From Candidatus Eiseniibacteriota bacterium (GTDB lineage Bacteria; Eisenbacteria; RBG-16-71-46; JABDJR01): a DNA stretch of 64,000 bases. A program made the position numbers and the translations under genes. Shown one piece after another: positions 7,736 to 60,043 of this stretch (position 1 is the first letter of the stretch; every line of letters starts with the position of its first letter). The stretch is taken from assembly GCA_963762255.1 (NCBI GenBank), contig CAVXKA010000002.1, positions 643,371 through 707,370 on the forward strand. Direction: 5' to 3'. The notes below the pieces were generated by a model. The model was given only the letters and a program-made list of their open reading frames with translations. It was not told where the DNA came from and made no database searches.

Positions 7736-7776
7736 GGGTACACCCTTGCGTGAACGGGGTCACTCCCCCGCTGTTC

Positions 7777-10230: not shown

Positions 10231-10247
10231 CAGCCTCTGGCGGGTCT

Positions 10248-12455: not shown

Positions 12456-12799
12456 CTGGCTCTCCTTTGGGTATGCGTGTATTGAGTCCGTGGCGTCCCC
12501 GAGCTTTGTCGCTCCGATATCCATTCTAAGTCCGCGGGTCAGCATATTCCAGAGTAGGGCGCAGACGGGGTCGGGACGGACGACTCGGGGGATTAAGGCC
12601 GCCGATCAGATGCCGAGATCAACCCCGTCGTCGCGGACTCGTTGGACCACGTCGAAGATCTCCCTGACGAGAATCGGGGCGAGGCACTGTCCCCCGCGCC
12701 CCGTCACGTTGTTGTAGATTATGGGCTCGTTGTGACGGAGCCGACGGCCTCCGGGGTTCTTGTCCGACTCGCCCCGAGCCACTCAGATGGAGGAAGACG

Positions 12800-24111: not shown

Positions 24112-24423
24112 GCGCTGATCGGCTGCGTACGATGGAAGCACGAGTGTTGCCGCCCCGCAGATTCCCGGTGCGCGCCGGGGTCGCGCGCAGAAGACTCGGC
24201 CCATTTCGCCCGCGCCGCGCGGGCCAACGATCTCGAAGCGGCCGAGGCTGGTTCAGGGGGTGCGGCGTATCGGGCACATATACACGATCGCGCCACATCC
24301 TCGGAATGGCGTCTATCTCGATGTAGGATGCATACTATGATCGTCGTCGTCGGGCCAAGCTGCCTCGCTGCGAAGCTCATCATTCCCAGCACGGTGGTCG
24401 GGATCCACCCACGGAGGTGAGAC

Positions 24424-27400
24424 ATGCACAGGCTCCCTACTCTCCTCACAGGTCCCAGACGCCCTTTCACATGCCAGGCAGCAAGGGGCATGTTGGCTCT
24501 CTCCTTGGTTCTTTCCAGCCTGCTTTCAGCTCCGGCCGCTGCCGTCGAGACCAGGCTGCTCAGGCTGCACAGCGACCCGGGGGACTGGATCGGCAAGGGA
24601 GCGGATCTCCACTTCACTGGCGCTGACGGGGCGTTCTCGCTGACAGGTACTCCCAGTGCCATCGTCGTCATCGTCAATACCCTGGAGGCGCACTGGCGCC
24701 TGGAGTTCGGCGCGCCCGCCGGAACGACGCTCGCTCCCGGACTCTATGAGAAAGCCAGGCGATGGCCATTCAATGATGGGGCCCCCGGGATCTCGATCGA
24801 TGGCAATGAGGGGGGCTGCAACGAAATCCTCGGACGGTTCACGATCAAGGAGATTGAGTTCAGCGGCGCTCGGCCAACCAGGTTTTGGGCTGTGTTCGAG
24901 CAACATTGCGAGAACGGCACCGACGCTCTTTGGGGCGAGATTCGATTTGACGCAAGAGTCCTCGTGGACATAGACGTCCCGGTTCGCGCATTTGCTCCAA
25001 CGTTGAAATCGTTGACCATTCCCGTCTCAGCAGAAGCGCTCGAAGGCGGTGATGTCGCATTGAGCGCCACTGGCTTGCCCGGTGGCTCCACATTCACCGA
25101 TCATGGTGACGGATCAGGGACTTTTACTTGGACTCCGGATCGCAAGCAGGTTGGTCGCCACATTGTGACGTTCTCAGGGCGGTCGGGCCCTTACCAAGGC
25201 AGCGCAACGACCACGCTTCTGGCCACGGGCGACTACCTGCTCTCCATCAACAGCGACCCCGACCACGCAGTAGGACAGGGAGACACTCTCCTCTTCACCC
25301 CTGATGACGGCTGGTTCCTGGACAGGTACTCAACGAGCGCGTGGGTCCAAACAGAATTCCAGCTTCCGGATCACAGCAGCTGGAGATTCGGGTTCCATAC
25401 TGATGGCACCCCGATCACCCCCCGGTTCTACACCGACATCCGTGGAACAGACGAGGCCGGACCCGGTCTGATATTGGACGTGAGTGGCAACAGCATGGTG
25501 TGTGGAGGTGTCCGAGGGTGGCTCCAAATCAAGAAGCTGTCATTTGACTTGGACGGTCGCTTGGAGAGCCTCTGGGCAACACTGGAGCATCACTGCGCGC
25601 GTTATACCGATCCGGGGCCCGCTCTTTTCGCCGAAGTCCGGTTCAACTCCCCCACCGCGGTGGCCGTGAATCCCATCCCCACACAGACCGCGGTGATCGG
25701 ACACAGACTGGAATTCCCGGTCGTCGCTAGTGATGTCCAGGGACGGTCGGTCACGCTCGCAGTGGTTGACCCGCCTCCGGGATCGTCCCTGGTCCCCGCC
25801 GGAGCGGGAATGGGTAGCTTCCAATGGACGCCGGAGTTTGACCAGGCGGGAGATCATGTTGTCTTCTTCCAGGGCAGCAACCAGGCCGGTGACCGGGACT
25901 CTTCGGGCGCACTGATTCACGTCCGCGGCGAGACCTCGCTAACCCTGAGAGAGGAAGGGGAGGACGGAATCGAGGTCTACAGGCGCCTTCCCGCGGACGG
26001 GGAGTTCGAGGTGTTGGCCAGCAATCGGGCTCGCCTACGGGTGACCTACAAGACACCCAACTACTCGGAGCATTTCTTGGTGGAACTGACCACGCCATCC
26101 GGCGTGGAAGCCTTTACTCCGGGATTCTACGAAACCGGACCTGGATTGGCTGGGCTCAGCATGATGGGAAGGCTCAATGATCAGTCGGTGCTCTGCGAGG
26201 ACTCGGGTGGAATGTCACCACAGGGCGCTTTTGAGATAAGGAGGCTGATCTGGGGTGGCGACAATCAGCCGGAACAACTTTATGTGGCGTTTTCTGCCCC
26301 CTGCAAGGAAGGGAAGTCAGTAGTCCGGGGAGAACTGCGAATCGACGCGCGGGTCCTCACGGATCTCCAAACCCCGGTCTGGAGTCGCGCCGAGGCAGGG
26401 AAACCCGTCTCCATTGAGGTGAAGGGGATAGACGCGAGAGGCCGCAGCTTGGCGCTCTCAGGCGTTCACCTACCGGAAGGAGCATGGTTCGATGACCGCG
26501 GGGACAATTCGGGGGTCGTTACGTGGGTGCCGGACCCCAGTCACATCGGGGGCAGTCAGCTTGTCTTCGGGGCACGCGCTGGAAGCGAGGATGTGACAAC
26601 GAGTTCAAGCTGGGTCGAGGTTACCGGGGAGACTTGGCTCAACGTGCACAGCGAAGCCGGCGATCCCGTTGGTGAGGGCCTGGATCGCCGTATTGAGCCC
26701 CCCTCGGCGGAGTTCGACTCCTACATTCTTGCTGACAACTCGGTCCATGTTCGGGCTTTCGAAGGTGGACGCCGGTGGACTCTGCACTTCGCTGCGGGCT
26801 TTGATTCCATTCTGACGGCAGGGGAATACGAGAACGTCACACGCTGGACGGCTACCGGACCTCATGAGACTCCAGGAATCCTCATCGAGCGGACCGGGGA
26901 GACGTGTGGCGCCATCACGGGACGTTTCACCGTTCACTCCATCAGCTATGGGTTGAATCGCACGTTGAAATCGCTGCACGCATCGTTCAGACAAACCTGT
27001 GAGGGCGCTCCCGGGGCCTTGGCCGGCGAGCTGCTGGTCAACTCATCGCCGGAGCTGATCCCGGTCCGAGTACTGAACTTCAATGCCTGCCCTGTGCATG
27101 GACAGGTCCGTCTGCAGTGGGTGACTGGCGAAGAGACAAGCGCTGTGGGATTTGATATCTGGCGGCATGTGGAGGCAGGCGACTGGGAGCAGTTGAATGT
27201 CAGTCCGATTACCGGCGGCCCCACATATGACTATCTGGATCCCCATCCTCCGGTTGGGCAACCCATCTTCTACTTCATCGACTCCATCGACCTGTCGGGG
27301 CACCGGGAGCGACACGGGCCCGTGAACGCGTACGTTGAGTCAGCAAGGAACCCTGCTCTCGCGGTCGCCAACAATCCCACTCGGTCACCCACGCGAATCC

Positions 27401-27621
27401 GGATGGCGTTGCCGCTCCCCGGTCGTCTGCAATTGTCGGTCTTCGACGTGGCCGGCCGCCGGGTTCGGCTTCTCATGGATGAGCAAGTTCCGGCAGGGTG
27501 GCACGAGATCGAATGGGACTTGCGCAACGACCGCGGACAGACTGTGCCTGCCGGAGTCTATTCCCTCCGCCTCGCGACTCCCCTGGGCCTCCGGAAGGAA
27601 AGACTGGTCGTTCTACGGTGA
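24424..27621 (+). CDS. Large secreted repeat protein (four roughly 230-aa internal modules, He_PIG-like Ig segments) with C-terminal T9SS/FlgD-Ig-like sorting domain
   Basis: Strong RBS GGAGGTGAGAC-ATG. Signal peptide present. Repeated module motifs (C..G.F.I..L.F....L.A.FEQHC...G.IRFDARVL; FTWTPD/FQWTPE/VTWVPDP). C-terminal approximately 80 aa (LQLSVFDVAGRRVRLL...GVYSLRL...LVVLR) is shared with two other proteins in the window. Confidence 0.7.
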   Translation: MHRLPTLLTGPRRPFTCQAARGMLALSLVLSSLLSAPAAAVETRLLRLHSDPGDWIGKGADLHFTGADGAFSLTGTPSAIVVIVNTLEAHWRLEFGAPAGTTLAPGLYEKARRWPFNDGAPGISIDGNEGGCNEILGRFTIKEIEFSGARPTRFWAVFEQHCENGTDALWGEIRFDARVLVDIDVPVRAFAPTLKSLTIPVSAEALEGGDVALSATGLPGGSTFTDHGDGSGTFTWTPDRKQVGRHIVTFSGRSGPYQGSATTTLLATGDYLLSINSDPDHAVGQGDTLLFTPDDGWFLDRYSTSAWVQTEFQLPDHSSWRFGFHTDGTPITPRFYTDIRGTDEAGPGLILDVSGNSMVCGGVRGWLQIKKLSFDLDGRLESLWATLEHHCARYTDPGPALFAEVRFNSPTAVAVNPIPTQTAVIGHRLEFPVVASDVQGRSVTLAVVDPPPGSSLVPAGAGMGSFQWTPEFDQAGDHVVFFQGSNQAGDRDSSGALIHVRGETSLTLREEGEDGIEVYRRLPADGEFEVLASNRARLRVTYKTPNYSEHFLVELTTPSGVEAFTPGFYETGPGLAGLSMMGRLNDQSVLCEDSGGMSPQGAFEIRRLIWGGDNQPEQLYVAFSAPCKEGKSVVRGELRIDARVLTDLQTPVWSRAEAGKPVSIEVKGIDARGRSLALSGVHLPEGAWFDDRGDNSGVVTWVPDPSHIGGSQLVFGARAGSEDVTTSSSWVEVTGETWLNVHSEAGDPVGEGLDRRIEPPSAEFDSYILADNSVHVRAFEGGRRWTLHFAAGFDSILTAGEYENVTRWTATGPHETPGILIERTGETCGAITGRFTVHSISYGLNRTLKSLHASFRQTCEGAPGALAGELLVNSSPELIPVRVLNFNACPVHGQVRLQWVTGEETSAVGFDIWRHVEAGDWEQLNVSPITGGPTYDYLDPHPPVGQPIFYFIDSIDLSGHRERHGPVNAYVESARNPALAVANNPTRSPTRIRMALPLPGRLQLSVFDVAGRRVRLLMDEQVPAGWHEIEWDLRNDRGQTVPAGVYSLRLATPLGLRKERLVVLR

Positions 27622-27768: not shown

Positions 27769-27857
27769 TGGTGCCGGGGGCCGGAATCGAACCGGCACGG
27801 ACGTTGCCGCCCTGCGGATTTTAAGTCCGCTGCGTCTCCCAGTTTCGCCACCCCGGC
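27769..27857 (-). tRNA. tRNA-Leu (anticodon TAA), type II with long variable arm, CCA encoded
   Basis: Reverse complement reads GCCGGGGTGGCGAAACTGGGAGACGCAGCGGACTTAAAATCCGCAGGGCGGCAACGTCCGTGCCGGTTCGATTCCGGCCCCCGGCACCA. It has a 7-bp acceptor stem (GCCGGGG/CCCCGGC), anticodon loop CUUAAAA, T-arm GGTTCGATTCC, and a long variable arm. Confidence 0.9.
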
Positions 27858-27900: not shown

Positions 27901-30900
27901 TCACCGGATGAGAAGCACCTTCCCCGCCAGCGTCCGGTCTCCCGCGGATAAGCGGAGAAAGTAGATCCCGGTCGCCATCGGCACCCCCATGTCGCTCCTA
28001 CCATCCCACGCCACTTGATGACGGCCCGCCGGATGGGCGTCCGCGCTCACCAGCGTCCGCGCGAGCCGTCCGGTCACGTCGTAAACGGCGAGCCGGACCG
28101 GGAGCACCTGCGGCAGGTCGAAGCGGATCACCGGGCTCGAACCTGCGGGTGCGGTTGGATGAAGCGCGAGCGCGCTCGGTAGGTCTTCCCGGCCGTCCTC
28201 CCCCGGCACCCCGGTGACTTCCTCATGAATCGTATGGAGCTGGTTTACCTGCACCGGTGAGAGGAACTGCATCGTGCCGTCCGGCCAGCGAATCTGAAGG
28301 AGATCCACCTGAGCCGCGCTGCCGAGACCGAAGTGGGTGATATAGGAGCAGTTTCCCGACTCCCCCACCACCTCCCGCATCTGGGTCTTTCCTCCCGCGG
28401 TGACCCATATCCGGGCGCCCACTCCGAAGCGGTTGAAGTGGACACCGTCGAGTCGGATCTTGATCCAGTTGTTCCCACCACAACCGGGATCCGCATGAAG
28501 GTTGTAGAGGTACCGATTCTCCGTGCTTCCTCCGAACCCTGAGATCACGAACTCGATGTCCCCGTCAGGATCGATATCGCCGGCCGTCACGCCCCAGTGA
28601 GAGCCGCTCCCCGCGGCGGTGGAACCGAGTGCGTTCTCGAACACACCGCCGCCACGGTTGCGAAGCAGGCGATTGGGACCCGCTCCATAATCGGGCAGGA
28701 AGATGTCGATGTCGCCGTCGTTGTCGTAGTCCGCGCAGGCCATCCCCATGCTCTGGGTCGAATCGGCGAAGGCCAGCGGTGTCGCGTCGGTGAAGTTCCC
28801 TCCACCGTCGTTGCGCAGGAGATAATCGTCCCCCTCGGCGACGATCAGAAGGTCCAGGTCCAGATCGTTGTCGTAGTCGATCCATGTCGCCGCCGCGTAG
28901 CCGTCATAGGTGGTGCCGAGCGGGCCGGTCGTCACGTCCACGAAGGTGCCCGCGTCGTTGCGCAAGAGTTGGCTGACGGACCCTCCCCCCGGCGATTTGG
29001 CCACGTAGAGATCGGGGTCACCATCGTCGTCGAAGTCCCCCCATGCCCCAGCCCGCCCTTCTCCAAACTGTAGGGCGGCAGGGGTCCTGTCGGTGAAGTA
29101 CCCGTCGCGCGAGTTGTGGAAGAGCTTGTCGCCGCCCCCGTTCGCAAGGAAGAGATCCAGGAATCCGTCCCGGTCGTAGTCGGCCCACGAGGCCCTCTGG
29201 CCGCTCACAGGGTCGTTCAGCGGCGGGAGCGTCGCATCGACGAAGGTTCCGTTGTCGTTCCGATAGAGCGCGTTGGTCCCGATGTTGACGACCGCGTAGA
29301 TGTCGAGATCCCCGTCGTTGTCGTAGTCCCCCCAGACCGCATCGAGATCGTACCCGGGGTGGTCGAACGGCGACGGCACCACCTCCACGAGCGTGACCCC
29401 ATTGTTGTGGAAGAGCTTGTCGGGACCGCCCGGGACCACGGCGTACAGGTCGAGGTTGCCGTCCCCGTCGTAATCCGCGATCGCGACGCCGGTGGCGCTG
29501 AACGGACCCGCCAGCGCCGGCGGGGTTTGATTAACGAACTGCTCGAACACCGCGAGTTGGTAGCTTCCGCTCTGCCCGTCGTCGTTGGCGGCGACAAGAC
29601 CGTGATAGGCGCTCGCCGTGGGAATGAAGTGGGTGCATCCCCCATCGGAGTCGACGAGCGCGTCGAGGCGCGATTGCCAGAGACCGGCATCCGGACTCAG
29701 AACGACCGCCTTCACGTCCGCGCCGTACCGCTGCAAGTGGACCTGATAGTCGACGTTGGCCTTCGGGAGGAAATCCCAGATCTCGAGCACGTCGTCCGAG
29801 CTGGTGCTGCGCGACACCCACGAGGCGAGGGGCAGTACATTCCCCCCGTCATCCCATTCCGTCCTGGCGTCCCCCGGTCCGGACTCCCTGGAAACCGCGG
29901 CGTAGTACGTGCCCAACGGGCCATACCCCCGATTGAAGTTCCCGGCCGCGAAATCCACGAATCCGGCCGGATGAGAAGTCTGCGCCAGAAGCTCACCGAA
30001 ACAGACCGGCCACCAGGATCCAGTCGGGGTCCCGTAGCTCGCAACGTTCCAGTTCGTCTCGGGCCCGTCGGCGCGGACCCCCACCGCAGACCAGTATTCC
30101 TCGGTCTGCTGCATGCTGTAGTGCGCGTTCACAGCCGGCGTCACGACGCTCGTCCCGCTCACGAGAGGTGTCGCGGAGGGACAGGCGCCTACTTCCACCG
30201 TGTACGTCCCGGACTCCCCATTGTCATTGACCACAACCAGGCCGTACCAGTCCGAGACGCCTGGCATATAACTCACGCCGAAGTTGGACGTCGCATAGCA
30301 CACCGCGCTCGCTCTGGCCGCGTAGTACTCACCCGAGCCCGGACTCTTGAAGACGAGGATCTGCAGTTGGGCGGCCCCGATCGACTTCAGCAGGACGTGG
30401 TAGTCCTTACTTGCTTCCAGGTACACGTCCCAGATCTCGAGGATGTCCTCGGGTCCGGTCGTCCGCTCCAGAGGTGGGGCGTTCACCGTGATCGTTTCCG
30501 CGCCCGAGTCCCACTCGATGAGTCCGTTCTCCGTGCCGTAGTAGTGGGAGTAGGCGACGATGTCCTCACCGAGCGCATTGTGATTGAAGTCGCCAACTAC
30601 GAAATCCACGCCTGAGGATCGATTGGAATAGGTCAGTAAGGTCTCGACACAGGGGGGAGGGAGCGCCCCCTCATCCGCGTAGAGCTGGATATCCCAGTCC
30701 TCCCCCGGCGCCGATCGAATGCCCACCGCCGACCAGAAGCCGACCGACTGCTGATAGGAATGGTAGTACTCGTCCGGGGGGCTCGACGGATACGCGGTGG
30801 CGCTCACTCCGGAAGCGAGAGGCGTGAACCAGCAGTTGATGAGGTCGAGCGGGCCCGCCGAAGAAGTGGTGGCGGTCCGAGTCCCCGCGTCGGCTGGCTT

Positions 30901-30978
30901 GGACGCCTCCGGAGAAGAGACGGTGAGGCTGGCGAGGGCAAGACCTATCAATCCGACGCCGATCAGGCAAGAGCGCAT
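27901..30978 (-). CDS. Secreted CRTAC1/ASPIC-UnbV family protein with FG-GAP/VCBS repeats, two N-terminal duplicated domains and C-terminal T9SS/FlgD-Ig-like sorting domain
   Basis: Signal peptide (MRSCLIGVGLIGLALASL). Multiple DYDxDGxxD(L/I) FG-GAP motifs. An UnbV_ASPIC-like segment (GGNNWIKIRLDG...GARIWVTAGG). C-terminal sorting-type domain ending KVLLIR. Confidence 0.8.
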   Translation of the reverse strand: MRSCLIGVGLIGLALASLTVSSPEASKPADAGTRTATTSSAGPLDLINCWFTPLASGVSATAYPSSPPDEYYHSYQQSVGFWSAVGIRSAPGEDWDIQLYADEGALPPPCVETLLTYSNRSSGVDFVVGDFNHNALGEDIVAYSHYYGTENGLIEWDSGAETITVNAPPLERTTGPEDILEIWDVYLEASKDYHVLLKSIGAAQLQILVFKSPGSGEYYAARASAVCYATSNFGVSYMPGVSDWYGLVVVNDNGESGTYTVEVGACPSATPLVSGTSVVTPAVNAHYSMQQTEEYWSAVGVRADGPETNWNVASYGTPTGSWWPVCFGELLAQTSHPAGFVDFAAGNFNRGYGPLGTYYAAVSRESGPGDARTEWDDGGNVLPLASWVSRSTSSDDVLEIWDFLPKANVDYQVHLQRYGADVKAVVLSPDAGLWQSRLDALVDSDGGCTHFIPTASAYHGLVAANDDGQSGSYQLAVFEQFVNQTPPALAGPFSATGVAIADYDGDGNLDLYAVVPGGPDKLFHNNGVTLVEVVPSPFDHPGYDLDAVWGDYDNDGDLDIYAVVNIGTNALYRNDNGTFVDATLPPLNDPVSGQRASWADYDRDGFLDLFLANGGGDKLFHNSRDGYFTDRTPAALQFGEGRAGAWGDFDDDGDPDLYVAKSPGGGSVSQLLRNDAGTFVDVTTGPLGTTYDGYAAATWIDYDNDLDLDLLIVAEGDDYLLRNDGGGNFTDATPLAFADSTQSMGMACADYDNDGDIDIFLPDYGAGPNRLLRNRGGGVFENALGSTAAGSGSHWGVTAGDIDPDGDIEFVISGFGGSTENRYLYNLHADPGCGGNNWIKIRLDGVHFNRFGVGARIWVTAGGKTQMREVVGESGNCSYITHFGLGSAAQVDLLQIRWPDGTMQFLSPVQVNQLHTIHEEVTGVPGEDGREDLPSALALHPTAPAGSSPVIRFDLPQVLPVRLAVYDVTGRLARTLVSADAHPAGRHQVAWDGRSDMGVPMATGIYFLRLSAGDRTLAGKVLLIR

Positions 30979-31093
30979 GTTCACCTCCGAGGACGTGACA
31001 ACGCCGGTACTCGATAATGATGACAATTCTTATTCTATTTGCTGGTCGAATTATTGTAGCAGAATCCAGGAAGCCGCGTCGGATCAGGCGAAG

Positions 31094-31879
31094 CTAGGCC
31101 CCGCCCTCGGTCCGCCACGCTTCCGGCAGCAGCGCCGCCGCCGAGCGATCGAGCAGCCAGAGCGTGGACTTGAGCGACACCATGCGCGCGGGATGGTGCG
31201 GCGAGGCCTCGGGGGCCTGGAGCGCATCCCGCACTGCCTCGGCCTTGTCGGCGCCGGAAACCAGAAACATCGTGCACCGCGTGGAGCACAGCGCGGCGGG
31301 AGTCAAGGACACGCGCGGCTGACCGCTCGGGTGCGCGGTGGCCACCGCAAGCCGGACACCGAAGTCGGGCCACTCGTCCGCGGGGAAGAGCGAGGCGACG
31401 TGCCCGTCGCTGCCCAAGCCCAACACGACGAGATCGAAGAGCGGCACGCGCTGCGCCCACACGAGAAGCATCTTGTGCGTCTTCTCCGCCGCTTTCTCGG
31501 GGGAATACTCGCCGGGGATGCGGATCAGGCGGTCGGTGGGCACGCCGAGCGGCGCGAACAGCGCCTCGTTGGCCATACGAAAATTGGATTCCTCGTCGGT
31601 CACCGGAACACAGCGTTCATCGGTAAGCACGAAGCGCACGCGCCGCCACGGCACGCGACTGCGCAGCGTGGGCGCCGAGAGGCGTTCATATACGGGGAAC
31701 GGCGTGCGTCCACCTGCCAGGGCCACACGGGGACCGCTCGGCGACTCCCCCAACCGCGCGGTGAAGTAATCGGCCGCGGCGTCCATGAGCCCCGTCTTGT
31801 CGTCGTAGATTCTCAGGCGATGCCCCTCGGGCAGCGTGTCGCTCACCGCATCATCCCCCGCTCCGAGCCGTGCCGTCAT
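31094..31879 (-). CDS. pgl: 6-phosphogluconolactonase
   Basis: 261 aa, glucosamine-6-P isomerase/6PGL fold motifs (LAGGRTP, GLGSDGHVASLFP). ATG start overlaps the opcA stop (ATGA). Confidence 0.85.
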   Translation of the reverse strand: MTARLGAGDDAVSDTLPEGHRLRIYDDKTGLMDAAADYFTARLGESPSGPRVALAGGRTPFPVYERLSAPTLRSRVPWRRVRFVLTDERCVPVTDEESNFRMANEALFAPLGVPTDRLIRIPGEYSPEKAAEKTHKMLLVWAQRVPLFDLVVLGLGSDGHVASLFPADEWPDFGVRLAVATAHPSGQPRVSLTPAALCSTRCTMFLVSGADKAEAVRDALQAPEASPHHPARMVSLKSTLWLLDRSAAALLPEAWRTEGGA

Positions 31880-33022
31880 CACGGCCTTTCCAGTGCGCCC
31901 AGGCGCCGGGCCAGATCCATGGCCTCGCGTGCCGCGCGCGACATCTCGCGCCGGCGTATCTCCTCCACCACCGCGCTTGCCCGGCTCGTCTTGGTCTGGT
32001 TGAGCCGGGCGGCCGGTGCACCTCCCTCCTCGATGAGGATGGCTCCCTCGGCAGGGAGGCGCCTCCAGCATACAGAAACCGAAGGCTCCGCGAAGTCCAT
32101 CGTGACGGCAAGGAGCGTGGACCCCCCTGCCGGGACGGACGCCGCGACAATGCGGACGGCGATCGGGCCGGCCAGACCGACGAACGAAGCGCCTGTTTCG
32201 GCGGCGCGCGCCCTGTCGAGGACGCGCCAGCCAAGACGCGAGGCAAGCCAACCGAGGAAGAGCCATGCCTTGAGCCGGCCTCCCGAGCCCTCGGCGACTG
32301 TCACGCTCACCGCGCGGATTGCGTCCAGATTCTGCGCGCGCACCCCGTCGAAGCGGGAAGCCACCGCGCGCCGCCAATCGCCGAGTTCCGTCCAGAGAAG
32401 ATCCCGGCAGGGCGGCGTCACGGTGTCCGGCGCCAGGCAGCGATCCCACAGCGCGAGCCCCTCGGCGATCCCGAGGTGGGACGCGTTGCCCAATAGAAGG
32501 TCGAGGTCGGACGAGAGCTCGCGCACCCATCCCAGTGCCAGCGGCGACGTGCGTTCCGAGAGCGCGACCAACGGCACCCCGCCCACCGCGAGCGCACGCA
32601 CTCCAGCCGCGATCACGCGATCCGCTCCGGTCGGCGCTTCCAGGTGAACGCTTTCGCAGCACACGAGCGACGCGCCGCTGGCGTAGCGCGAGCAGGTCGC
32701 GCTCACCCACGCCTGCGACCGTGTGTGCGCTGCGTCTGTCTCGACAAGCGATCACCCGCGAGGGATGTAGGCGCGCGATGTCGTCGACGAGATCCTGCAT
32801 CCCGTCGTCTCCTGCGGCGGGTGCGACCAGCGTTGCCCGGCAGGCGCGCGCCACCGAGCGCCCCGTCTCACCCTCGCCGACCGCCGCTTCCGACTCCCAG
32901 AGCGCGGCGAGATCGCGCTCCACCGCGGCCGCGTCGAATCCGACCGGCGCGCTGCGGCCTAGCTGGACGACGTCTTCGTGTCCGGCCCGTGGCGCCGACG
33001 GCGCAGCGTCCGGCGCGTTCAT
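31879..33022 (-). CDS. opcA: Glucose-6-phosphate dehydrogenase assembly protein OpcA, apparently frameshifted near 32640-32710
   Basis: Position between zwf and pgl with ATGA overlaps at both ends. The N-terminal part (MNAPDAAPS...) is in the pgl frame, while the C-terminal 275 aa (31879..32706) is in another frame. It is assigned as OpcA by synteny (zwf-opcA-pgl is the standard arrangement); the OpcA family was not verified at motif level. Confidence 0.5.
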
Positions 33023-34530
33023 CAGAGCCGCAACCACCGGCGGCCATCCGCTTCGAGCAGACGGTCCGCCTCGGCGGGACCCCACGTCCCCGCCTCGTAG
33101 AACGCGGGTTCCGGAGCGTTGCGTTCAGCGCCCCACGCTTCCGCGATCGGATCGACGAGGGACCACGCGAGCTCGACTTCGTCGCGGCGCGCGAACAGCG
33201 TCGAGTCGCCGGTGATCGCGTCCAGAAGAAGGCGCTCGTACGCCTCGGGGGGTTCCTTGCCGAACGAAGTGGAGTAGTTGAAGTCCATCCGCACTTCGTC
33301 GATGCGCATCGCTTGCGCCGGAGCCTTCGACTCGAAGGAGAGCGAGATCCCCTCGTCGGGCTGGATGCGCAGGCGCAGCACGTTGGACCTCGGCCGCTCG
33401 GCGCCGCTCCCACGAAAGAGTTCGTAGGGCGGCTTCTTGAAGACGATGCCGATCTCTGTGGCGCGCTTGGGGAGCCGCTTGCCGGAACGCAGGTAGAACG
33501 GCGTTCCCGCCCACCGCCAGTTCGCCGCTTCGAGCTTGAGCGCGAGGTAGGTGTCCGTCCGCGAGCCGGTCGCCACGCCCGGTTCCTCGCGATAGCCGGG
33601 CACGCTCTCGCCGCCGGCGAGCCCCGCTCCGTACTGCCCGCGCACCACGCGGCGCGCGATCTCGTCCGGCGCGAAGGGCACGATGGAACGGAGCACCTTG
33701 GCCTTCTCGTCGCGCACCGACTTGGCGTCGAAGCGGACCGGCGGCTCCATGCAGACGAGCATCATGAGCTGGAGCAGGTGGTTCTGCAGCATGTCGCGCA
33801 GCACGCCCGCCTCCTCGTAGTAGCCCGCGCGCCCCTCCAATCCCACCGACTCGGCCACCGCGATCTGAACGTGATCGACGTAGCGACTGTTCCATAGCGG
33901 TTCGAAGATGCCGTTGTCGAGGCGGAACACCAGGATGTTCTGCACCGTCTCCTTGCCCAGGTAATGATCAATACGAAACACCTGATCCTCATCGAACACG
34001 CCGAGCAACGTGTCGTTGAGGGCGCGCGCAGAAGCGAGATCCCGCCCAAACGGCTTCTCGACGACGATGCGCGACGCGCCCGCCTGGCCGGGGGCCCGCA
34101 CGAGCCCGGCCCGGCCCAGATTCTGGATGATCGTGGGATACGCGCTGGGCGGAGTGGCGAGATAGAAGAGATGCACGCCGGGATGGCCGCGCTCGGCGTC
34201 GATCGCGCGCAGCCGCTCTCCCAGCTTGCGGTAGGTCGCCTCGTCCTGGAACTCGCCGCAGACGTAGCTCAGGTCCCCGCAGAGCTGCGTCCACACTGCG
34301 TTGTCCACCGGACGACGGCGCGAGAAGCGGTCCACTCCCTCTCGCATTTCGGTGTGGAACTTCTCATCGGTCCAGTCACGCCGCGCCACGCCCACCACGC
34401 TGGTGTCTGGATGGAGAAGGCCCTCCCAAGCCAGGTTGTAAATCGCGGGGAGGAGCTTGCGGTGGGTGAGATCGCCGGTGGCGCCGAACATGACGAGCGT
34501 GCACGGGACCGGCTCGCGCTGCGACTCCAT
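33022..34530 (-). CDS. zwf: Glucose-6-phosphate dehydrogenase
   Basis: 502 aa with the NAD(P) site VMFGATGDLTHRKLLPAIY and the catalytic motif RIDHYLGKE. The upstream 111-codon Arg/Ala-rich extension of the ORF was rejected. Confidence 0.9.
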   Translation of the reverse strand: MESQREPVPCTLVMFGATGDLTHRKLLPAIYNLAWEGLLHPDTSVVGVARRDWTDEKFHTEMREGVDRFSRRRPVDNAVWTQLCGDLSYVCGEFQDEATYRKLGERLRAIDAERGHPGVHLFYLATPPSAYPTIIQNLGRAGLVRAPGQAGASRIVVEKPFGRDLASARALNDTLLGVFDEDQVFRIDHYLGKETVQNILVFRLDNGIFEPLWNSRYVDHVQIAVAESVGLEGRAGYYEEAGVLRDMLQNHLLQLMMLVCMEPPVRFDAKSVRDEKAKVLRSIVPFAPDEIARRVVRGQYGAGLAGGESVPGYREEPGVATGSRTDTYLALKLEAANWRWAGTPFYLRSGKRLPKRATEIGIVFKKPPYELFRGSGAERPRSNVLRLRIQPDEGISLSFESKAPAQAMRIDEVRMDFNYSTSFGKEPPEAYERLLLDAITGDSTLFARRDEVELAWSLVDPIAEAWGAERNAPEPAFYEAGTWGPAEADRLLEADGRRWLRL

Positions 34531-34607
34531 CCCCACGCGAAGCGGGTTCGCACTCGCTGCGGCGGACGGCGGAGCGGCGGGATCCCCGGCGCCTCGGTCG
34601 GCCCCGC

Positions 34608-35516
34608 TCAAGACGACGCCTTCTTCACCGCGTGCCCTCCGAACTGCTGCCGGAGCGCGGCCAGCACCTTGGCCTGAAAGGAGTCTTCCTGCCGCGAGCG
34701 GAACCGCGTCATGAGCGCCGCGTAGAGCACCGGCGCGGGAACGTCGTGGTCGACGGACTCCTGAAGCGTCCAGCGTCCCTCGCCGGAGTCGGACACGTAG
34801 CCGCTGAGCGATGCCAGCGACGGATCCTCGGCGAAGGCCCGCCCCGCCAGCTCCAGAAGCCACGATCGCACCACGCTCCCCTGCATCCAGACCGAGCAGA
34901 GCTGCTCGAGGTCGAACCCGTAGTCGGAGGCGTTGAGGATCTCGAAGCCTTCCGCGTAGGCCTGCATGAGGCCGTACTCGATCCCGTTGTGGACCATCTT
35001 CGCGTAGTGCCCCGCCCCCGACGGACCCACGCGGGCCCAGCCCTGATCGCGCGCGGGAGCCAGGGTCTCGAAGATCGGTCGCACGCGATCCACGACCGAC
35101 GTCTCGCCGCCGATCATGAGCGAGTAGCCGTTATCGAGCCCCCACACGCCGCCGCTCACACCTGCGTCGATGAAGTGAAGGCTGCGCTCCCGCAGCGCCT
35201 GCCCGCGGCGCACCGAGTCCTTGAAGTAGCTGTTGCCGCCGTCGATGACGACGTCGCCGGGAGCGAGCACATCGGCCAGGCTCCAGATCGTCGTCTCTGT
35301 CGGGTCCCCCGCCGGAACCATGACCCACGCGGTGCGCGGCGGCCGCAGCTTCCCCGCGGCCTCGGCGAGCGTCGACGCACCTTCCGCTCCCTCCGCGACC
35401 ATGGCCGCCACGGCCTCGCGATCGAGGTCGAAGACCACCACGCGATGCCCGCCGCGCAGGAGCCGCCGCGTCATGTTGGCGCCCATCTTGCCGAGTCCGA
35501 TCATCACGATATCCAT
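34608..35516 (-). CDS. gnd: 6-phosphogluconate dehydrogenase (decarboxylating), short NAD-type form
   Basis: 302 aa, Rossmann MIGLGKMGANM, 6PGDH signature around GAGHYAKMVHNGIEYG. ATG overlaps the upstream SDR stop (ATGA). Confidence 0.85.
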   Translation of the reverse strand: MDIVMIGLGKMGANMTRRLLRGGHRVVVFDLDREAVAAMVAEGAEGASTLAEAAGKLRPPRTAWVMVPAGDPTETTIWSLADVLAPGDVVIDGGNSYFKDSVRRGQALRERSLHFIDAGVSGGVWGLDNGYSLMIGGETSVVDRVRPIFETLAPARDQGWARVGPSGAGHYAKMVHNGIEYGLMQAYAEGFEILNASDYGFDLEQLCSVWMQGSVVRSWLLELAGRAFAEDPSLASLSGYVSDSGEGRWTLQESVDHDVPAPVLYAALMTRFRSRQEDSFQAKVLAALRQQFGGHAVKKASS

Positions 35517-36232
35517 CACAGATCTCCTCCGTCGGGTCGAAGCACGATCTCCTCCGGCACCGAGCGCGGGTCCGTGGACAACGCCCAGATCACCGCGTCC
35601 GCCACCGAGCCCGGCGACATGAGTCGATCCGCGGGCGGGGCCTTTGCGTGCTCCCACATCGCGGTCGCGGTCGCGCCGGGAATGACCGCGGTGACGCGCA
35701 CGCCGGTTCCGAGCGTCTCTTCCCGTAGCACGCGCGTGAACCCGAGCAACCCGAACTTCGACGCGCCGTAGGCGCCGCAGCCGCGATACGCCTTCACACC
35801 CGCCACCGAGACGTTCATCACGACGTGCCCCTCGCGCGCGGCCAGCATCTCCGGGAGCACCTCGCGGGTGAAGAAGAACGGTCCACGCAGGTTGGTCTCC
35901 ATAGCGCGATTCCAGACTTCCGTGGTGAGCTTCGCCACCGAAGCGTATTCCGCCACCCCCGCGTTGTTGATGAGGATGGACACGCGGCCGAAGCGCTCGC
36001 GCGCCGCATCCACCGCCCGGCGCACATTGTCCTCGCGGCGCACATCGCACACGATCGGCTCGAACGCGACCTCGTGCCCCGCGGCGTCGGCATCCCGCCC
36101 CAGCGCCTGGAGCGGCTCCTCGCGGCGGCCGACGCCGGCTACGTTCACGCCCAGCGCCAGCAACCGGAGCGCGATCTCGCGCCCTATGCCTGTCCCCGCG
36201 CCAGTCACGATCGCGGTACGGCCGGAGAGCAT
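35516..36232 (-). CDS. SDR-family oxidoreductase (candidate sepiapterin/pteridine reductase by context)
   Basis: TGAGTGIGREIA cofactor motif, NNAG, and a YGASK catalytic dyad. Sits between gnd and folE with ATGA overlaps on both sides. Confidence 0.75.
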   Translation of the reverse strand: MLSGRTAIVTGAGTGIGREIALRLLALGVNVAGVGRREEPLQALGRDADAAGHEVAFEPIVCDVRREDNVRRAVDAARERFGRVSILINNAGVAEYASVAKLTTEVWNRAMETNLRGPFFFTREVLPEMLAAREGHVVMNVSVAGVKAYRGCGAYGASKFGLLGFTRVLREETLGTGVRVTAVIPGATATAMWEHAKAPPADRLMSPGSVADAVIWALSTDPRSVPEEIVLRPDGGDL

Positions 36233-36816
36233 CAGATCTCCGTCCTGTGCTTGAGCAAGTCCAGGAATTCGTTGCGTGTCCCGCGGTCCTCGCGGAACAC
36301 GCCCAGCATGGCGCTGGTGATCGCCACCGAGTGCTGCTTCTGCACGCCGCGCATGGTCATGCACATGTGCGTCGCCTCGATCACCACCCCCACCCCCTGC
36401 GGCTGCAAGAGCTTTTGGATGGTCTGGGCGATCTGGTTGGTCAAGCGCTCCTGCACCTGGAGTCGCCGCGCGCACACATCCACCAGGCGCGGGATCTTTG
36501 AGAACCCGACGATCTTGCCGTTGGGGATGTAGGCCACATGGGCCTTTCCCACGAACGGGAGGAGATGGTGCTCGCACATCGAATAGAGTTCGATGTCCCG
36601 GATGCAGATCATCTCGTCGGTGTCCTCGCTGAACAGGGCCTTGTTGAGCACGTCTTCCGGATCCTGCTTGTAGCCCTGCAAGAGGAAGCGATAGGCCTGG
36701 GCCACGCGGTGGGGTGTGCGCAGGAGCCCTTCGCGCTCGGGATCCTCGCCCAGCTCGACCAGCATCTCGCGCACCAGCGCTTCCAGTCGCGCGTTGTCCA
36801 ATGGTTTCATCATCAA
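36232..36816 (-). CDS. folE: GTP cyclohydrolase I
   Basis: 194 aa with the conserved FolE core ([10 protein letters not shown], zinc-binding CEHH) and C-terminal ...MCMTMRGV... Confidence 0.9.
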
Positions 36817-37244
36817 CCTCTTTCGGGTCCGTAGAAATCCACGACGTTTCGATCGGTCTCATAGAGTCGGATGCGATACAGGATCCCCGCGGGAAGCGCC
36901 GGCTCCAGCACCTCCCAGGCCGCCACGGCGATGTTCTCCGCGGTCGGGATGCGACCCCGCATGAAGTCCACGTCGCGGTTGAAATCGCGGTGGTCGCAAC
37001 GCTCCCAGAACTCGCGCACGATGACCGCCTTGAGATGCTTGAGATCGACAACCATGCCGGTCTCAGGATCGGGCTTCCCGCGCACCGTCACCTCGAGCAC
37101 GTAGTTGTGGCCGTGCCCGCCCTCGGTGGCGCACTTGCCGAAGACGGCGGCGTTCCGCGCATCGTCCCAGGCCGGATTGTGGAGCCGGTGCGCCGCGCAG
37201 AAGGCGATGCGCTTGGTGAGGTAGAGAGAACCGTCCCGCATCAT
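36813..37244 (-). CDS. 6-pyruvoyl-tetrahydropterin synthase / QueD-family 6-carboxytetrahydropterin synthase
   Basis: 143 aa with the CxxxH...HGHNY zinc-site pattern (FCAAHRL...[11 protein letters not shown]) of the PTPS/QueD fold. Whether it is PTPS or QueD is not resolvable by eye. Confidence 0.8.
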
Positions 37245-38455
37245 CGCGCATCTCCTTCGCTCTCAGCGCCCGGCGCGCCTCCGCCACGCCGCCACGCATC
37301 CGCAAGCTCGCTCAGTCGTCCGGCGGGGAGTTTGCCCGTTCCAAGCCGATCGTTGCCCCCTCCGCGTCCTTCGCACGCGGCCAGCAGACCGCGCAGCACA
37401 GTACCGGCATGCGCGGGCCACCCCGAGGGCACGGCGAGCGCCGCCCGCCCCTCGGCGCCGTTCGCGCTGGTGAGCAGCACCGGCGCGCCCCGCCGATCCG
37501 CCAGCGCCGACGCCATCGGCACCAGCCACTCGGCGCGGCCCGGCCCGACGTCCCGCACGAACGCGCCATCCACCGGCTCGGCAGCCCAGCGCTCGATCCG
37601 GTCCTCGCGCAGCTCGGTCTCGGCCTTCTCCGCCCGCGCGCGCTCGGCCCGCGCCTCCTCCTGAATCGCGGCGGCCCGCTCCGGCACGTCGAACTCATCG
37701 ACGGTCAGCGCCAGGGCCAGACCCCGTAGCGCGCGATGCCGCCGCGCGTAGTCCCCCAGCGCGCGCGCCCCGCAGACGAACTCGATCCGGAGTCCCCCCT
37801 TCTTCCGCTCCCAGCGCAGGATCTTGATCGGTCCCACCTGGCCCGCCCGGTCGCAATGGGTGCCGCAGCAGGGAGTCGCGTCGAAAGTGCCCACGGCCAC
37901 GACGCGGACGGGTCCTTCCGCCGGCGCTTCCTTGCGGAGGTGCCGAGGCGCGGAGGCGGCGTCGGGGTACCATGCGGCCACCACAGGGAGATCGGACATG
38001 ACCACAACGTTCGCGGCGCGCTCGGCGCGGTCCATCGCATCCTCATCCAGGTTATCGCGGTCGAGATCGATCGTGCAGCGGTCCGCCCCCAGATGGAAGC
38101 CGACCGTGCCCGCCGCGGCCAGGTCGAGGAACGCCCGACTCAAGATGTGCTGCCCGGTGTGCTGCTGGCGGTGATCGAGCCGGCGCTCCCAGTCCACCTC
38201 GCCGCTCACCGGACCCTCGGCGAGCACGCCCAAGATACGGTGGACAACGGTCTCGCCCTCTTCGAACACGTCCACGACGCGGCAGCCCCCGAGCACGCCG
38301 AGATCGTGCGGCTGGCCTCCTCCGGTGGGATAGAGCGCCGTGCGATCGAGCACGACGTCGCAGAGCCCCTCTCCCGCGGCGCGGGCAGAGAGCACGACGG
38401 CGTCGAAGGCGCGCAGCGCGGAATCCTCGTAGTAGAGTCGTTGGGTGGCCGGCAT
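37241..38455 (-). CDS. alaX: Alanyl-tRNA-synthetase-related editing protein (AlaX-L-like; Thr/Ala-RS second additional domain)
   Basis: HxxxH (HTGQHIL) and CxxxH (CCGTHC) zinc motifs of the AlaRS editing domain. N-terminal MPATQRLYYED is typical of AlaX. Confidence 0.75.
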   Translation of the reverse strand: MPATQRLYYEDSALRAFDAVVLSARAAGEGLCDVVLDRTALYPTGGGQPHDLGVLGGCRVVDVFEEGETVVHRILGVLAEGPVSGEVDWERRLDHRQQHTGQHILSRAFLDLAAAGTVGFHLGADRCTIDLDRDNLDEDAMDRAERAANVVVMSDLPVVAAWYPDAASAPRHLRKEAPAEGPVRVVAVGTFDATPCCGTHCDRAGQVGPIKILRWERKKGGLRIEFVCGARALGDYARRHRALRGLALALTVDEFDVPERAAAIQEEARAERARAEKAETELREDRIERWAAEPVDGAFVRDVGPGRAEWLVPMASALADRRGAPVLLTSANGAEGRAALAVPSGWPAHAGTVLRGLLAACEGRGGGNDRLGTGKLPAGRLSELADAWRRGGGAPGAESEGDAR

Positions 38456-38576
38456 CGGTCGAATACCCCGCAGGTGACGTTCCAGTATACGCGAAGGCGA
38501 CTTCTGCTATACTGCTTCACGAGCGTGATCGGCGGCCTTCCCTGCATGGTCTTGCCGGATCGGGTTCAGGAGTCAG

Positions 38577-38987
38577 ATGCGCAAGCTCATTTCACTCGTC
38601 CTGGGATTCTCTTGCTGCGCGGCGGTCGCGACCGCCGGCCCGCGTCAGTCCGGGTCTCCTCTGGACTCGACACCGTTCCGCAGCGATCGCGCCAACTTCA
38701 GTCTCTCCGCCGTCGGGGGCCAATCTCAACTTTTTGACCGCGCCGCTCCGGCCTCCAAGGAGGCCACGGAAGCCCGAGAGCTCGCCGAGGTCCAGGCGAT
38801 CGCCTACCGCATCTCCTACGCCGGGGTTCTGCTGCTGACCGCAGACCGGCTCTTCCGCTCGTTCGACTCCGTTCTCGAGAGCATGCAATTGAACGCCGAG
38901 GACGGGACCAACTTCCACTTCGTGATGGAGCCGAAAAGCCGAGGTTTCGAGATCGGGCTCCGCCTCTCCCGACCGATCGGCTTCTGA
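38577..38987 (+). CDS. Small secreted hypothetical protein
   Basis: 136 aa with signal peptide (MRKLISLVLGFSCCAAVATAG). Divergent from the alaX operon. The antisense 257-aa ORF is considered spurious. Confidence 0.45.
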   Translation: MRKLISLVLGFSCCAAVATAGPRQSGSPLDSTPFRSDRANFSLSAVGGQSQLFDRAAPASKEATEARELAEVQAIAYRISYAGVLLLTADRLFRSFDSVLESMQLNAEDGTNFHFVMEPKSRGFEIGLRLSRPIGF

Positions 38988-39011
38988 TCCGCTCCTCGAG
39001 TTGAGGGGGTT

Positions 39012-39359
39012 ATGAGCGATACCTGTCTCTTCTGCAAGATCGCTCGCCGCGAACTGGACGCCGCCGTCGTGTACGAGGACGACGACGTGCTCGCCTTCAA
39101 GGACATCCAACCGCAGGCGCCCGTTCATGTGCTGATCATCCCCAAGCGCCACCTCGCCACCCTCAACGATTTCCGACCGGACCACGGCGACCTGATCGTC
39201 AAGCTCGTCCTCGCCGCGACCAAAATCGCGCGCGACCAGGGGGTGGCGGACGACGGCTACCGCCTGGTGTGGAACTGCCAGGAAGGGGCTGGGCAGTCGG
39301 TCTTTCACGTCCACCTGCACCTCCTCGGCGGGCGGCGCCTGAACTGGCCTCCCGGCTAG
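39012..39359 (+). CDS. HIT-family (histidine triad) nucleotide hydrolase
   Basis: 115 aa with a histidine triad (HVHLHLLGG) and an N-terminal CLFCKI zinc-ribbon-like motif. Confidence 0.9.
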   Translation: MSDTCLFCKIARRELDAAVVYEDDDVLAFKDIQPQAPVHVLIIPKRHLATLNDFRPDHGDLIVKLVLAATKIARDQGVADDGYRLVWNCQEGAGQSVFHVHLHLLGGRRLNWPPG

Positions 39360-58510: not shown

Positions 58511-60034
58511 ATGACGACACCCTCCCACGAAGCCGCCAACCAACGCGAGGGGCTCTGGTTCTTCGGATTCCCCCTCGGCTATTGGATGCTCAACGTCATC
58601 GAGATGTGGGAGCGCATGGCCTTCTTTCTCGTCCGCAGCGTGGTGGCGATCTACATCATGCAGGCGGACGAGGTCAACGGCCTCCACTTCACCGCCATGC
58701 AAAAGGGGACCATCTACGCCTGGTGGGGAGTCTTCCAATCCATCCTGCCGATGATCACCGGCGGGTACGCCGACCGCTACGGCTACAAGAAGACGCTGGT
58801 GTTCTCGGTGACCGTCAACATCCTGGGCTACGTCCTCATGGCCTACACCCGCAGCTTCTGGGGATTCTTCGCGGCGATCATGGTGCTGGCCACCGGCACC
58901 GCGTTCTTCAAGCCGAGCTTGCAGGGATCCCTCGCGCAGAACCTGACCAAGGCGAATTCCTCGGTGGGCTGGGGCATCTTCTACTGGATCGTAAACGTCG
59001 GAGCCGCCGCCGCGCCGCTCCTCGCCGCGTTCATCCGCCACGAGTACTCTTGGCGCATCCTCTTCCTCACCGCGGCCGGCATCACCTGCCTCAACTACGG
59101 GATGCTCTTCACCTTCAAGGACTTTCAATCCGGCGCCGACAAGACCCGCAATCCGCTTCAGGTCTTCTGGTACACGCTCAAGAACATCTTTCAGCTCCGC
59201 CTGATCGTCTGGCTTCTCATCATGTCCTGCTTCTGGCTGATGATGTATCAGCTCTGGGACCTCCACCCCAACTTCATCACCGACTGGATCGACAGCTCGC
59301 CGCTGGCCGCGACGCTTCAGGGATGGAGCTTCGTCCCGCAGAGCTGGATCACGATGACCGCGCGCGGGCCGCAGGTGCCGCAGGAACTTCTCCTGAACCT
59401 CAACGCCGCCCTCATCGTGATCCTCATGATTCCCGTCTCCTGGGCGGTCCGTAAGATGCGCACGCTCTCGGCGATGGTCATCGGCATGTGCGTGGCGACG
59501 GTCGGCATCCTGGTTTCGGGGCTCACCGTCAGCGGCTATGTGTTCCTCCTCGGCGTTGTCTTCTTCTCACTGGGCGAGATGCTGACCGGCCCCAAGAAGA
59601 ACGAGTACCTCGGCCTCATCGCCCCTCCCGGGAAGAAGGGGCTCTACCTCGGCTACGTGAACATCCCGGTGGGCATCGGCCTGTACGTGGGATCCAGCCT
59701 CGCCGGCTACCTCTACGGCAACTTCGGCGACAAGTCGGTTCTCGCCCAGAAGTACCTCATCGAGCACACGCCGTTCGGCGCGGACAAGCTCCCGTTCTGG
59801 AAGGGGGGCGTGGGGCAGCTCGAGGGCGTGCTCGGGGTGCCGCGCACCGAGGCCATGGCCAAGCTCCAGGAGGTCCTGGCCATCGATAACGTCGCGGCCA
59901 CACGGCTGCTCTGGGATACATACAGCCCGCAGTACCATGTTTGGCTGCCGTTCGCGGCGATCGGGGTTGTGGCGATCATCGCCCTCATCATCTTCAACCA
60001 GATGGCCAGGCGCTGGTCGGACATGAACGCCTGA
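58511..60034 (+). CDS. POT/PTR2-family proton-dependent oligopeptide transporter (MFS)
   Basis: ExxERFxYYG-type motif ([16 protein letters not shown]) and about 14 TM helices. Start chosen at MTTPSHEA; the listed ORF begins at 58397. Confidence 0.7.
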
Positions 60035-60043
60035 TCGGGTCGG

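Follow-up and report, generated by a model that had tools for sequence, protein, structure and literature searches.

The pterin pathways of Chlorobium tepidum and Synechococcus have been studied biochemically, and the PTPS-II subfamily of COG0720, that of the 6-pyruvoyl-tetrahydropterin synthases (PTPS), is said to have been described by Phillips et al. in 2012. Zallot et al. (2016) also described the subfamily. Within COG0720, PTPS-II carries the motif CxxxxxHGH, QueD (PTPS-I) carries CxxxHGH and PTPS-III carries ExxHGH; hybrid enzymes exist, and Rhodothermus marinus is named as carrying PTPS genes in different conserved contexts (PMC5041015). Bacterial PTPS-II genes form clusters with those for GTP cyclohydrolase I (FolE) and sepiapterin reductase, a short-chain dehydrogenase/reductase (SDR), and the order PTPS-folE-SDR is found in Rhodothermus and in many metagenome loci. 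Operons of zwf, opcA and pgl are known from cyanobacteria, actinobacteria and metagenome-assembled genomes (MAGs) labelled Eisenbacteria. Editing proteins of the AlaX-L type are free-standing, have about 400 amino acids (aa), and combine a tRNA_SAD domain, the zinc motifs HxxxH and CxxxH, and a C-terminal DHHA1-like region. Here we describe a 64,000-nucleotide (nt) stretch of DNA from Candidatus Eiseniibacteriota bacterium (the window) in which these three units form a single string of eight genes.

The eight genes lie co-directionally on the minus strand at positions 31094-38455, in the order alaX-L, PTPS, folE, SDR, gnd, zwf, opcA, pgl. The open reading frame (ORF) listing, Pfam and NCBIfam upheld this gene list, its order and its outer coordinates as the original prediction had given them. 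All components are of known families (PTPS-II/FolE/sepiapterin reductase clusters, zwf-opcA-pgl operons, short-chain 6-phosphogluconate dehydrogenase, AlaX-L). We consider it likely that this tight string consists of three units, each independent elsewhere, that were welded together by inheritance in one lineage. We found no literature on PTPS linked with zwf or opcA, and the composite of pterin and pentose-phosphate genes appears to be undescribed; it would be a variant of known gene clusters and no new system. It illustrates cleanly how independent modules can be welded into a single overlapping string, and it gives a testable hypothesis, namely that pterin synthesis and Zwf are co-regulated. 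An uncultured lineage is also added to the few bacteria for which synthesis of biopterin-type pterins is predicted. The window has a high GC content (~66%), and the closest named relatives of its Zwf are from Candidatus Eisenbacteria MAGs (~59-63% identity).

We surveyed relatives at three depths: the same genus, the same lineage and outside the lineage. Within the genus, L088-L090 (87% nucleotide identity; PTPS 98.6% identical in amino acids) carry the same eight genes; their junctions overlap and their opcA is intact. In the same-lineage relatives (L001, L003, L005, L171 and L174), PTPS is 65-76% identical to that of the window, and gaps of 37-230 nt lie between the pterin and the pentose-phosphate blocks. 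L001 and L005 read alaX-PTPS-folE-SDR-GH15-HAD-zwf-opcA-pgl, with GH15-HAD in place of gnd and SDR-GH15 gaps of 105-230 nt. L003 is arranged like these two but has an opposite-strand gene of 339 aa where the SDR would be. L174 has alaX-PTPS-folE, an opposite-strand gene of 208 aa and then gnd-zwf-opcA-pgl, with no SDR at that place. L171 goes directly from PTPS-folE-SDR to zwf-opcA-pgl and has no alaX.

Outside the lineage the link disappears. None of 80 metagenome PTPS-II loci (46-58% identity) had zwf, opcA, pgl, gnd or alaX within reach, and in Rhodothermus marinus and L006 the PTPS-folE-SDR cassette stands alone, unlinked to pentose-phosphate genes. A pterin link was also absent from the Eisenbacteria zwf loci examined. 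Eisenbacteria-labelled contigs instead carry rpiB-pgi and, further along, tal-gnd-zwf-opcA-pgl-glk-deoC, with overlapping gnd and zwf and without pterin genes. Among these, L172 shares with the window the order gnd-zwf-opcA-pgl, the overlap of gnd and zwf, the NPLR motif of Zwf and a two-domain OpcA. The window differs from the tal-gnd-zwf-opcA-pgl-glk operons in lacking tal, pgi, rpiB and glk, in having a pterin cassette upstream and in its frameshifted opcA. From the other PTPS-II/FolE/sepiapterin reductase clusters it is set apart by the overlapping alaX-L in front, by the gapless run into gnd-zwf-opcA-pgl and by a Glu in place of Pro in the PTPS loop.

The operon that the original prediction proposed to look for in relatives was therefore found unchanged in L088-L090, in variant or interrupted form in the rest of the lineage and not at all beyond it. 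The adjacency of pterin genes and zwf is inherited within one uncultured lineage, where it is fairly stable and interruptible and its filling varies; full compaction into one overlapping string is confined to the window's genus. Because the adjacency is lineage-specific and interruptible, it reveals no new pathway or mechanism by itself. A HIT-family gene (Hint/DcpS_C-like) lies divergent from the pterin cassette in the window, and HIT genes are likewise divergent from PTPS in R. marinus L007 (9494-9841), L171 (225-590), L088 (7885-8232), L001, L003, L005 and L174, so that each lineage member examined has one. Judged from this gene order, the neighbourhood of HIT and pterin genes is older than the pentose-phosphate linkage. 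The genes outside the block from HIT to pgl differ between lineage members.

The GH15 and HAD genes that lie between the pterin cassette and zwf in relatives occupy 12013-14738 in L001, 12436-15176 in L003 and 12137-14871 in L005; the window has gnd at that place. The window does encode a larger, glucodextranase-like GH15 protein at 7777-10545 (minus strand), ~21 kb from the operon.

Table 1. Features of the eight-gene string and its upstream side, by window position.
Feature	Position	Strand	Basis
pgl, 6-phosphogluconolactonase, 261 aa, last gene	31094-31879	minus	Pfam Glucosamine_iso E=1e-52; TIGR01198 156 bits (cut-off 124.45)
opcA 3' part, +1 frame, OpcA_G6PD_C domain	31879-32748	minus	Pfam PF20171 E=2e-16; TIGR00534 OpcA E=5e-7
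Single inserted base (G on minus strand)	32749-32749	minus	GTGATCGCTTGTC in window vs GTGATC-CTCGTC in L088
opcA 5' part, codons 1-91, up to frameshift	32750-33022	minus	three-frame translation; alignment to L088
zwf, glucose-6-phosphate dehydrogenase, 529 aa from TTG 34611	33022-34611	minus	TIGR00871 631.7 bits (cut-off 400.6)
gnd, short-chain (tetrameric-type) 6-phosphogluconate dehydrogenase, 302 aa	34608-35516	minus	NCBIfam NF007161 452 bits, TIGR00872 398 bits, both above cut-off
SDR, Chlorobium-type sepiapterin reductase candidate, 238 aa	35516-36232	minus	Pfam adh_short E=4e-55; classical SDR
folE, GTP cyclohydrolase I type IA, 193 aa	36232-36813	minus	Pfam E=2e-79; NCBIfam FolE 281 bits (cut-off 174)
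PTPS-II type 6-pyruvoyl-tetrahydropterin synthase, 143 aa	36813-37244	minus	Pfam PTPS (PF01242) E=8e-32; dN/dS 0.025
alaX-L-type alanyl-tRNA trans-editing protein, 404 aa, first gene	37241-38455	minus	Pfam, NCBIfam, Zn motifs
Intergenic region, divergent, upstream of alaX, 121 nt	38456-38576		sequence; aligned with L088
HIT-family gene, divergent neighbour of pterin cassette	38988-39359	plus	Pfam HIT E=7e-27

Six of the junctions had been described as ATGA overlaps. On inspection, a 4-nt ATGA overlap is present only between alaX and PTPS, and five junctions (PTPS/folE, folE/SDR, SDR/gnd, zwf/opcA and opcA/pgl) are 1-nt TGATG overlaps, in which, for example, the ATG of folE shares one base with the stop codon of PTPS. 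At these five, a 4-nt overlap would result if translation began at an alternative TTG or GTG codon instead. A gap of 77 nt had been placed between gnd and zwf. The N-terminal motif NPLR(E/V)G of Zwf, conserved in orthologues down to 59% identity, is encoded upstream of ATG 34530. Between the gnd stop and this motif, TTG 34611 offers the only in-frame start, and it forms a TTGA overlap with the gnd stop; at this junction L088 and L174 likewise have TTGA and L172 has ATGA, and the public gene call of this Zwf (P0134) also has 529 aa. Since the conserved motif precedes it, ATG 34530 is best taken as internal and TTG 34611 as the start, and the supposed gap is almost certainly coding.

With this start, stop and start codons overlap at 7/7 junctions. 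L088 has overlaps at all junctions but opcA/pgl, where its gene call leaves 19 nt. Shine-Dalgarno-like purine runs (GAAGGAGA, AAGAGG, GGACGGAG, GGAGGAG, GAAGAAGG and GGAAAGG) precede most internal starts. Together with the overlaps at seven junctions, these runs make translational coupling from gene to gene likely. The intergenic region upstream of alaX is the sole non-coding space where a promoter for all eight genes could sit. Neither a sigma-70-like promoter nor an intrinsic terminator-like site (3.0 of the latter expected from shuffles) was found anywhere in 30700-39100; both negatives are uninformative for this phylum, which the sigma-70 consensus may not suit. Rfam at gathering thresholds gave only a tRNA and no riboswitch in the whole window. 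The geometry is that of an operon: same strand, zero intergenic space and no terminator-like site inside. The ratio of non-synonymous to synonymous substitution rates (dN/dS) against L088 ranged from 0.025 (PTPS) to 0.22 (opcA), so that purifying selection is seen in all genes tested, a set from which pgl was left out.

As we picture its working, one promoter upstream of alaX would drive a polycistronic mRNA, and the overlapping stop and start codons would couple translation down the string. AlaX-L would deacylate Ser- or Gly-tRNA(Ala). FolE would convert GTP to dihydroneopterin triphosphate, PTPS-II would convert this to 6-pyruvoyl-tetrahydropterin, and the putative Chlorobium-type sepiapterin reductase would reduce the side chain with NADPH to give a tetrahydrobiopterin (BH4)-type pterin. 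The products of gnd-zwf-opcA-pgl would lead from glucose-6-phosphate to ribulose-5-phosphate by way of an OpcA-dependent Zwf, the lactonase and a short-chain Gnd, whose reduced cofactor is probably NADH and not NADPH. The string would have become fully compact in the window's genus once gnd lay directly after the SDR gene. Gene identities, motifs, overlaps, synteny and purifying selection are observed directly, and from them we infer the single transcript, the enzyme activities, the stereochemistry of the product, the cofactor use and any physiological coupling. A physiological link between the pterin and the pentose-phosphate blocks is possible, and the data do not require one.

Several points weigh against a string of independent units joined by inheritance. 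That the eight genes are very probably one transcript is read from gene geometry alone. Neither phenylalanine hydroxylase nor carbinolamine dehydratase is encoded among the ~45 ORFs of the window, in which no BH4-using enzyme was seen. Unless an assembly error accounts for the insertion in opcA, the Zwf activator of this organism may not work. Finally, the order of pterin genes followed by pentose-phosphate genes has outlasted ~35% divergence of the proteins and repeated rearrangement of the flanks, more than drift by itself would readily explain, which leaves room for selection on the linkage.

Had the linkage been selected, AlaX, the pterin cassette and the oxidative pentose-phosphate genes would be a redox or NADPH regulon in which Zwf feeds sepiapterin reductase or pterin reduction. 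The order from pterin cassette to zwf-opcA-pgl, on one strand, is indeed kept in five structural variants that span 65-94% (PTPS) and 65-92% (Zwf) identity to the window and differ in the genes beyond the HIT-to-pgl block. Overlapping junctions are shared by the window and L088, and beta-strand 2 of the SDR is followed by an Arg-rich segment, which would be typical of NADPH-using SDRs. However, the blocks are parted by an opposite-strand gene, with the SDR missing there, in L003 and L174, and by 105-230 nt gaps and unrelated sugar genes in L001 and L005. The link is also absent from the 80 other PTPS-II loci, from Rhodothermus and from the Eisenbacteria zwf loci, and Gnd looks NAD+-dependent. 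We regard a selected linkage as doubtful, and the welding of independent units by inheritance remains our preferred account.

The cofactor of Gnd bears directly on why the two blocks might be joined. Short-chain 6-phosphogluconate dehydrogenases have the C-terminal motif RX2FGXH (PMC12871650). RQQFGGH in the window's Gnd fits this motif and, with a length of ~300 aa and two models above cut-off, places it among the short-chain, tetrameric enzymes. The names of its NCBIfam models disagree on the cofactor (NADP versus NAD+). Its top match in the PDB is Gnd2 of M. tuberculosis (8ihe), labelled NAD(+)-dependent, and VVVFDLD of the window aligns to VVYDHD of that protein, which puts an Asp at the position that discriminates for NAD. 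In Rossmann folds, an acidic residue ending beta-strand 2 generally favours NAD+. Gnd therefore probably prefers NAD+ and would be likely to yield NADH rather than NADPH. Because Gnd resembles NAD+-dependent enzymes, only Zwf is confidently a source of NADPH. Cofactor synthesis, for its part, uses negligible NADPH next to the flux through Zwf. The original prediction had explained the joining of the blocks by the NADPH need of pterin reduction. Judged by stoichiometry this rationale is a weak one; a Gnd that uses NAD+ would weaken it more, and it also loses ground because the blocks are separable.

As sequenced, opcA does not encode an intact two-domain protein: only PF20171 was detected, while intact OpcA proteins of relatives have 313-385 aa with both PF10128 and PF20171. 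Without base 32749 the gene encodes an OpcA of 380 aa, which shares 76.5% identity with the intact protein of L088 (375 aa), and dN/dS against L088 is 0.19 downstream of the shift. For these reasons the insertion is probably either a very recent change or an assembly error. A real frameshift would make opcA a pseudogene, or would yield a read-through product of OpcA(1-91), nonsense residues and Pgl, and the pentose-phosphate half of the string would be decaying. The insertion is outside any homopolymer, the shifted frame is open into pgl, and no protein of the set is less conserved than OpcA (76.5% against L088). Against this, the dN/dS of 0.19 past the shift lies in the same regime as in intact genes, and OpcA is intact in every relative examined but L173, which has a run of N in its opcA-pgl region. 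An AcrB-like gene of the window is also split between frames, which suggests indel errors of long-read assembly, and the source contig, at 1.44 Mb, would be typical of long-read MAGs. We think a real frameshift unlikely.

The start frame of opcA stays open through pgl as an ORF of 663 codons (31094-33085, minus strand), whose product would join the first 91 residues of OpcA to ~290 residues read out of frame and then to Pgl. A programmed frameshift was ruled out: there is no slippery sequence, and the extra base is absent from L088. In L173, an apparent gene of 642 aa (7720-9648) takes the place of opcA and pgl and has no Pfam matches; this is a scaffold-gap run of N and not a fusion. The AcrB-like gene lies at 59713-62488 (minus strand), where two overlapping ORFs in different frames match positions 298-550 and 866-921 of the AcrB/ACR_tran model. 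It is probably a frameshifted efflux-pump gene or the result of assembly indels.

The first gene has the features of AlaX. It matches Pfam tRNA_SAD (PF07973; E=6e-12) and, more weakly, tRNA-synt_2c and DHHA1, and its translation shows the zinc motifs HTGQH (HxxxH) and CGTH. NCBIfam gave AlaXM at 142 bits, below the cut-off of 300 bits, and the C-terminal half of archaeal AlaRS at 172 bits; dN/dS against L088 is 0.16. AlaX-L homologues in many phyla are 40-50% identical to it. The window, L088, L001, L003 and L174 all keep the 4-nt overlap between the alaX stop and the PTPS start. Its conservation speaks for genuine co-expression and gives no mechanistic tie between AlaX-L and pterins. No PTPS, folE or zwf was found near AlaX homologues in 80 GTDB genomes (31-49% identity), so that a general association of AlaX with pterin genes can be rejected; elsewhere AlaX-L does not stand beside these genes, and the overlap with PTPS is known from this lineage only. 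AlaX is a conserved operon member within this lineage, and its presence at the head of the string, called unexplained at the outset, is still so.

If the whole block from HIT to pgl were a selected oxidative-stress unit, Zwf/OpcA would supply NADPH, the reduced pterin would act as antioxidant or cofactor, and AlaX-L would provide back-up proofreading of tRNA(Ala), all in a fixed ratio from one coupled mRNA. This strikes us as distinctly improbable. If true, it would tie pterin metabolism to central redox metabolism and to the quality control of translation in a way not described before.

The pterin cassette itself is easier to assign. The loop C38-ATEGG-H44-G-H46 of the window's PTPS reads CxxxxxHGH, the spacing of PTPS-II, and none of H19, C38, H44, H46, D84, H85 and E129 varies across 27 aligned homologues. 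Residues H19, H44 and H46 (zinc), C38-D84-H85 (catalytic) and E129 align with the corresponding residues of rat and human PTPS, which in the rat enzyme we take to be His23/48/50 for zinc, Cys42-Asp88-His89 for catalysis and Glu133 as the pterin anchor. Among all PDB sequences the top matches are human PTPS (3i2b, 123.8 bits) and rat PTPS (1b66, 123.1 bits), both over the full length (E ~5e-35). E. coli QueD (4ntm) reaches 41 bits, and QueD-type proteins of E. coli and Pseudomonas in the PDB reach 41-45 bits (E ~1e-9). The QueD equivalog model TIGR03367 gives 62.3 bits against a cut-off of 89.25, which is not reached. These data, which include the inspection of the active site proposed earlier as a check, support a PTPS-II (BH4-type) assignment and not QueD.

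The genes that follow PTPS are consistent with this. The sepiapterin reductase of C. tepidum requires Phe99 and Trp196 for substrate binding (PMC7520308). That enzyme (2bd0) is the top single-domain PDB match of the window's SDR (119.5 bits, ~35% identity, E=1.5e-33), and the alignment runs from residue 7 to the last residue, including the common C-terminal EEIVLRPDGGDL (pattern EEI(V/I)LRP..GD(L/I)). Y96 aligns with Phe99 and W193 with Trp196 of 2bd0, and the equivalent of Trp193 is kept in the cassette SDRs of L001, L005, L006a, L007 (R. marinus), L088 and L171. The catalytic triad S142/Y155/K159 is present. Close behind 2bd0 come 2ehd (117.5 bits) and FabG-like enzymes, and the SDR reaches no NCBIfam cut-off. 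It most resembles a Chlorobium-type sepiapterin reductase and is a candidate for this function, as the original prediction had it.

A folE and a sepiapterin-reductase-like SDR gene directly downstream are the context of PTPS-II, and relatives have the same. In the 37 metagenome PTPS-II loci with at least 2.5 kb of downstream sequence, folE lies just downstream of PTPS in 27 and a similar SDR is found in 17; R. marinus (L007) has the same order, PTPS-folE-SDR. What the window shares with such clusters is the three enzymes, the CxxxxxHGH motif with its catalytic residues and an SDR resembling the C. tepidum enzyme. The BH4-type reading of folE, PTPS and SDR thus stands on the PTPS-II signature, the SDR and the lack of queC and queE in the window and near the relatives' loci.

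Two PTPS-II paralogues in tandem occur upstream of folE in 16/37 of the metagenome loci, including L104, L108, L109, L117, L121-L123, L126-L128, L133, L137, L148, L162 and L163. Each has the Cx5HGH motif and is ~40-50% identical to the window's PTPS.

One residue of the PTPS loop allows a different assignment. In CATEGGHGH (37120-37128, codons 39-41), Glu41 replaces Pro, and the loop formally fits ExxHGH as well. The enzyme might then act as PTPS-III and bypass FolB in folate synthesis, alone or besides its PTPS-II activity; the definition of that motif and the existence of hybrid enzymes would allow this (PMC5041015). The Glu three residues before HGH is present only in the window's protein and in a 94%-identical relative (P0001), however, and nearly all other homologues have Pro, as do mammalian PTPS. 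Neither folK nor folP is nearby, and the cassette partners and overall similarity favour PTPS-II. We consider PTPS-III activity very unlikely, and because the Glu is not conserved we treat it as a curiosity.

A PTPS homologue that was QueD, in a cluster serving queuosine (preQ0) synthesis, can be rejected as extremely improbable: many homologues are named '6-carboxytetrahydropterin synthase' by NCBI, TIGR03367 gives a sub-threshold match (62 bits), and FolE is common to the queuosine pathway, but the motif is Cx5HGH and not Cx3HGH, the curated cut-off is missed, solved QueD proteins score 41 bits against 124 for mammalian PTPS, queC, queE and queF are missing from the window and from the relatives' flanks, and a sepiapterin-reductase-like SDR stands two positions downstream, after folE. 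The E. coli pathway resembles the window in the fold family (PF01242) and in FolE as first enzyme; it differs in the Cx3HGH spacing, in its product and in the clustering of queD with queC and queE. None of queC, queE, queF, folB, folK and folP is found among the window's ORFs, and none of queC, queE, queF, folB and folK within 10 kb of the relatives' loci, so the check on queC and queE that had been suggested does not favour queuosine synthesis. The public name '6-carboxytetrahydropterin synthase' (QueD) thus covers a PTPS family that appears to be BH4-type PTPS-II.

Other genes of the window include a single ORF of 1,719 codons at 12668-17827 (plus strand) with MetV-like DUF5981, MTHFR, S-methyl_trans, Pterin_bind, B12-binding and Met_synt_B12 domains. 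It looks like a methylenetetrahydrofolate reductase fused to a cobalamin-dependent methionine synthase. On the downstream side of the operon, a secreted-type protein of ~1,040 aa is encoded at 27901-31026 (minus strand), and its counterpart in L088 has FG-GAP, UnbV_ASPIC and C-terminal FlgD_ig domains. Further along on the same side are a tRNA-Leu(TAA) gene (27769-27857) and, at 24421-27621 (plus strand), a large secreted-type protein with Ig repeats and a FlgD_ig C-terminus.

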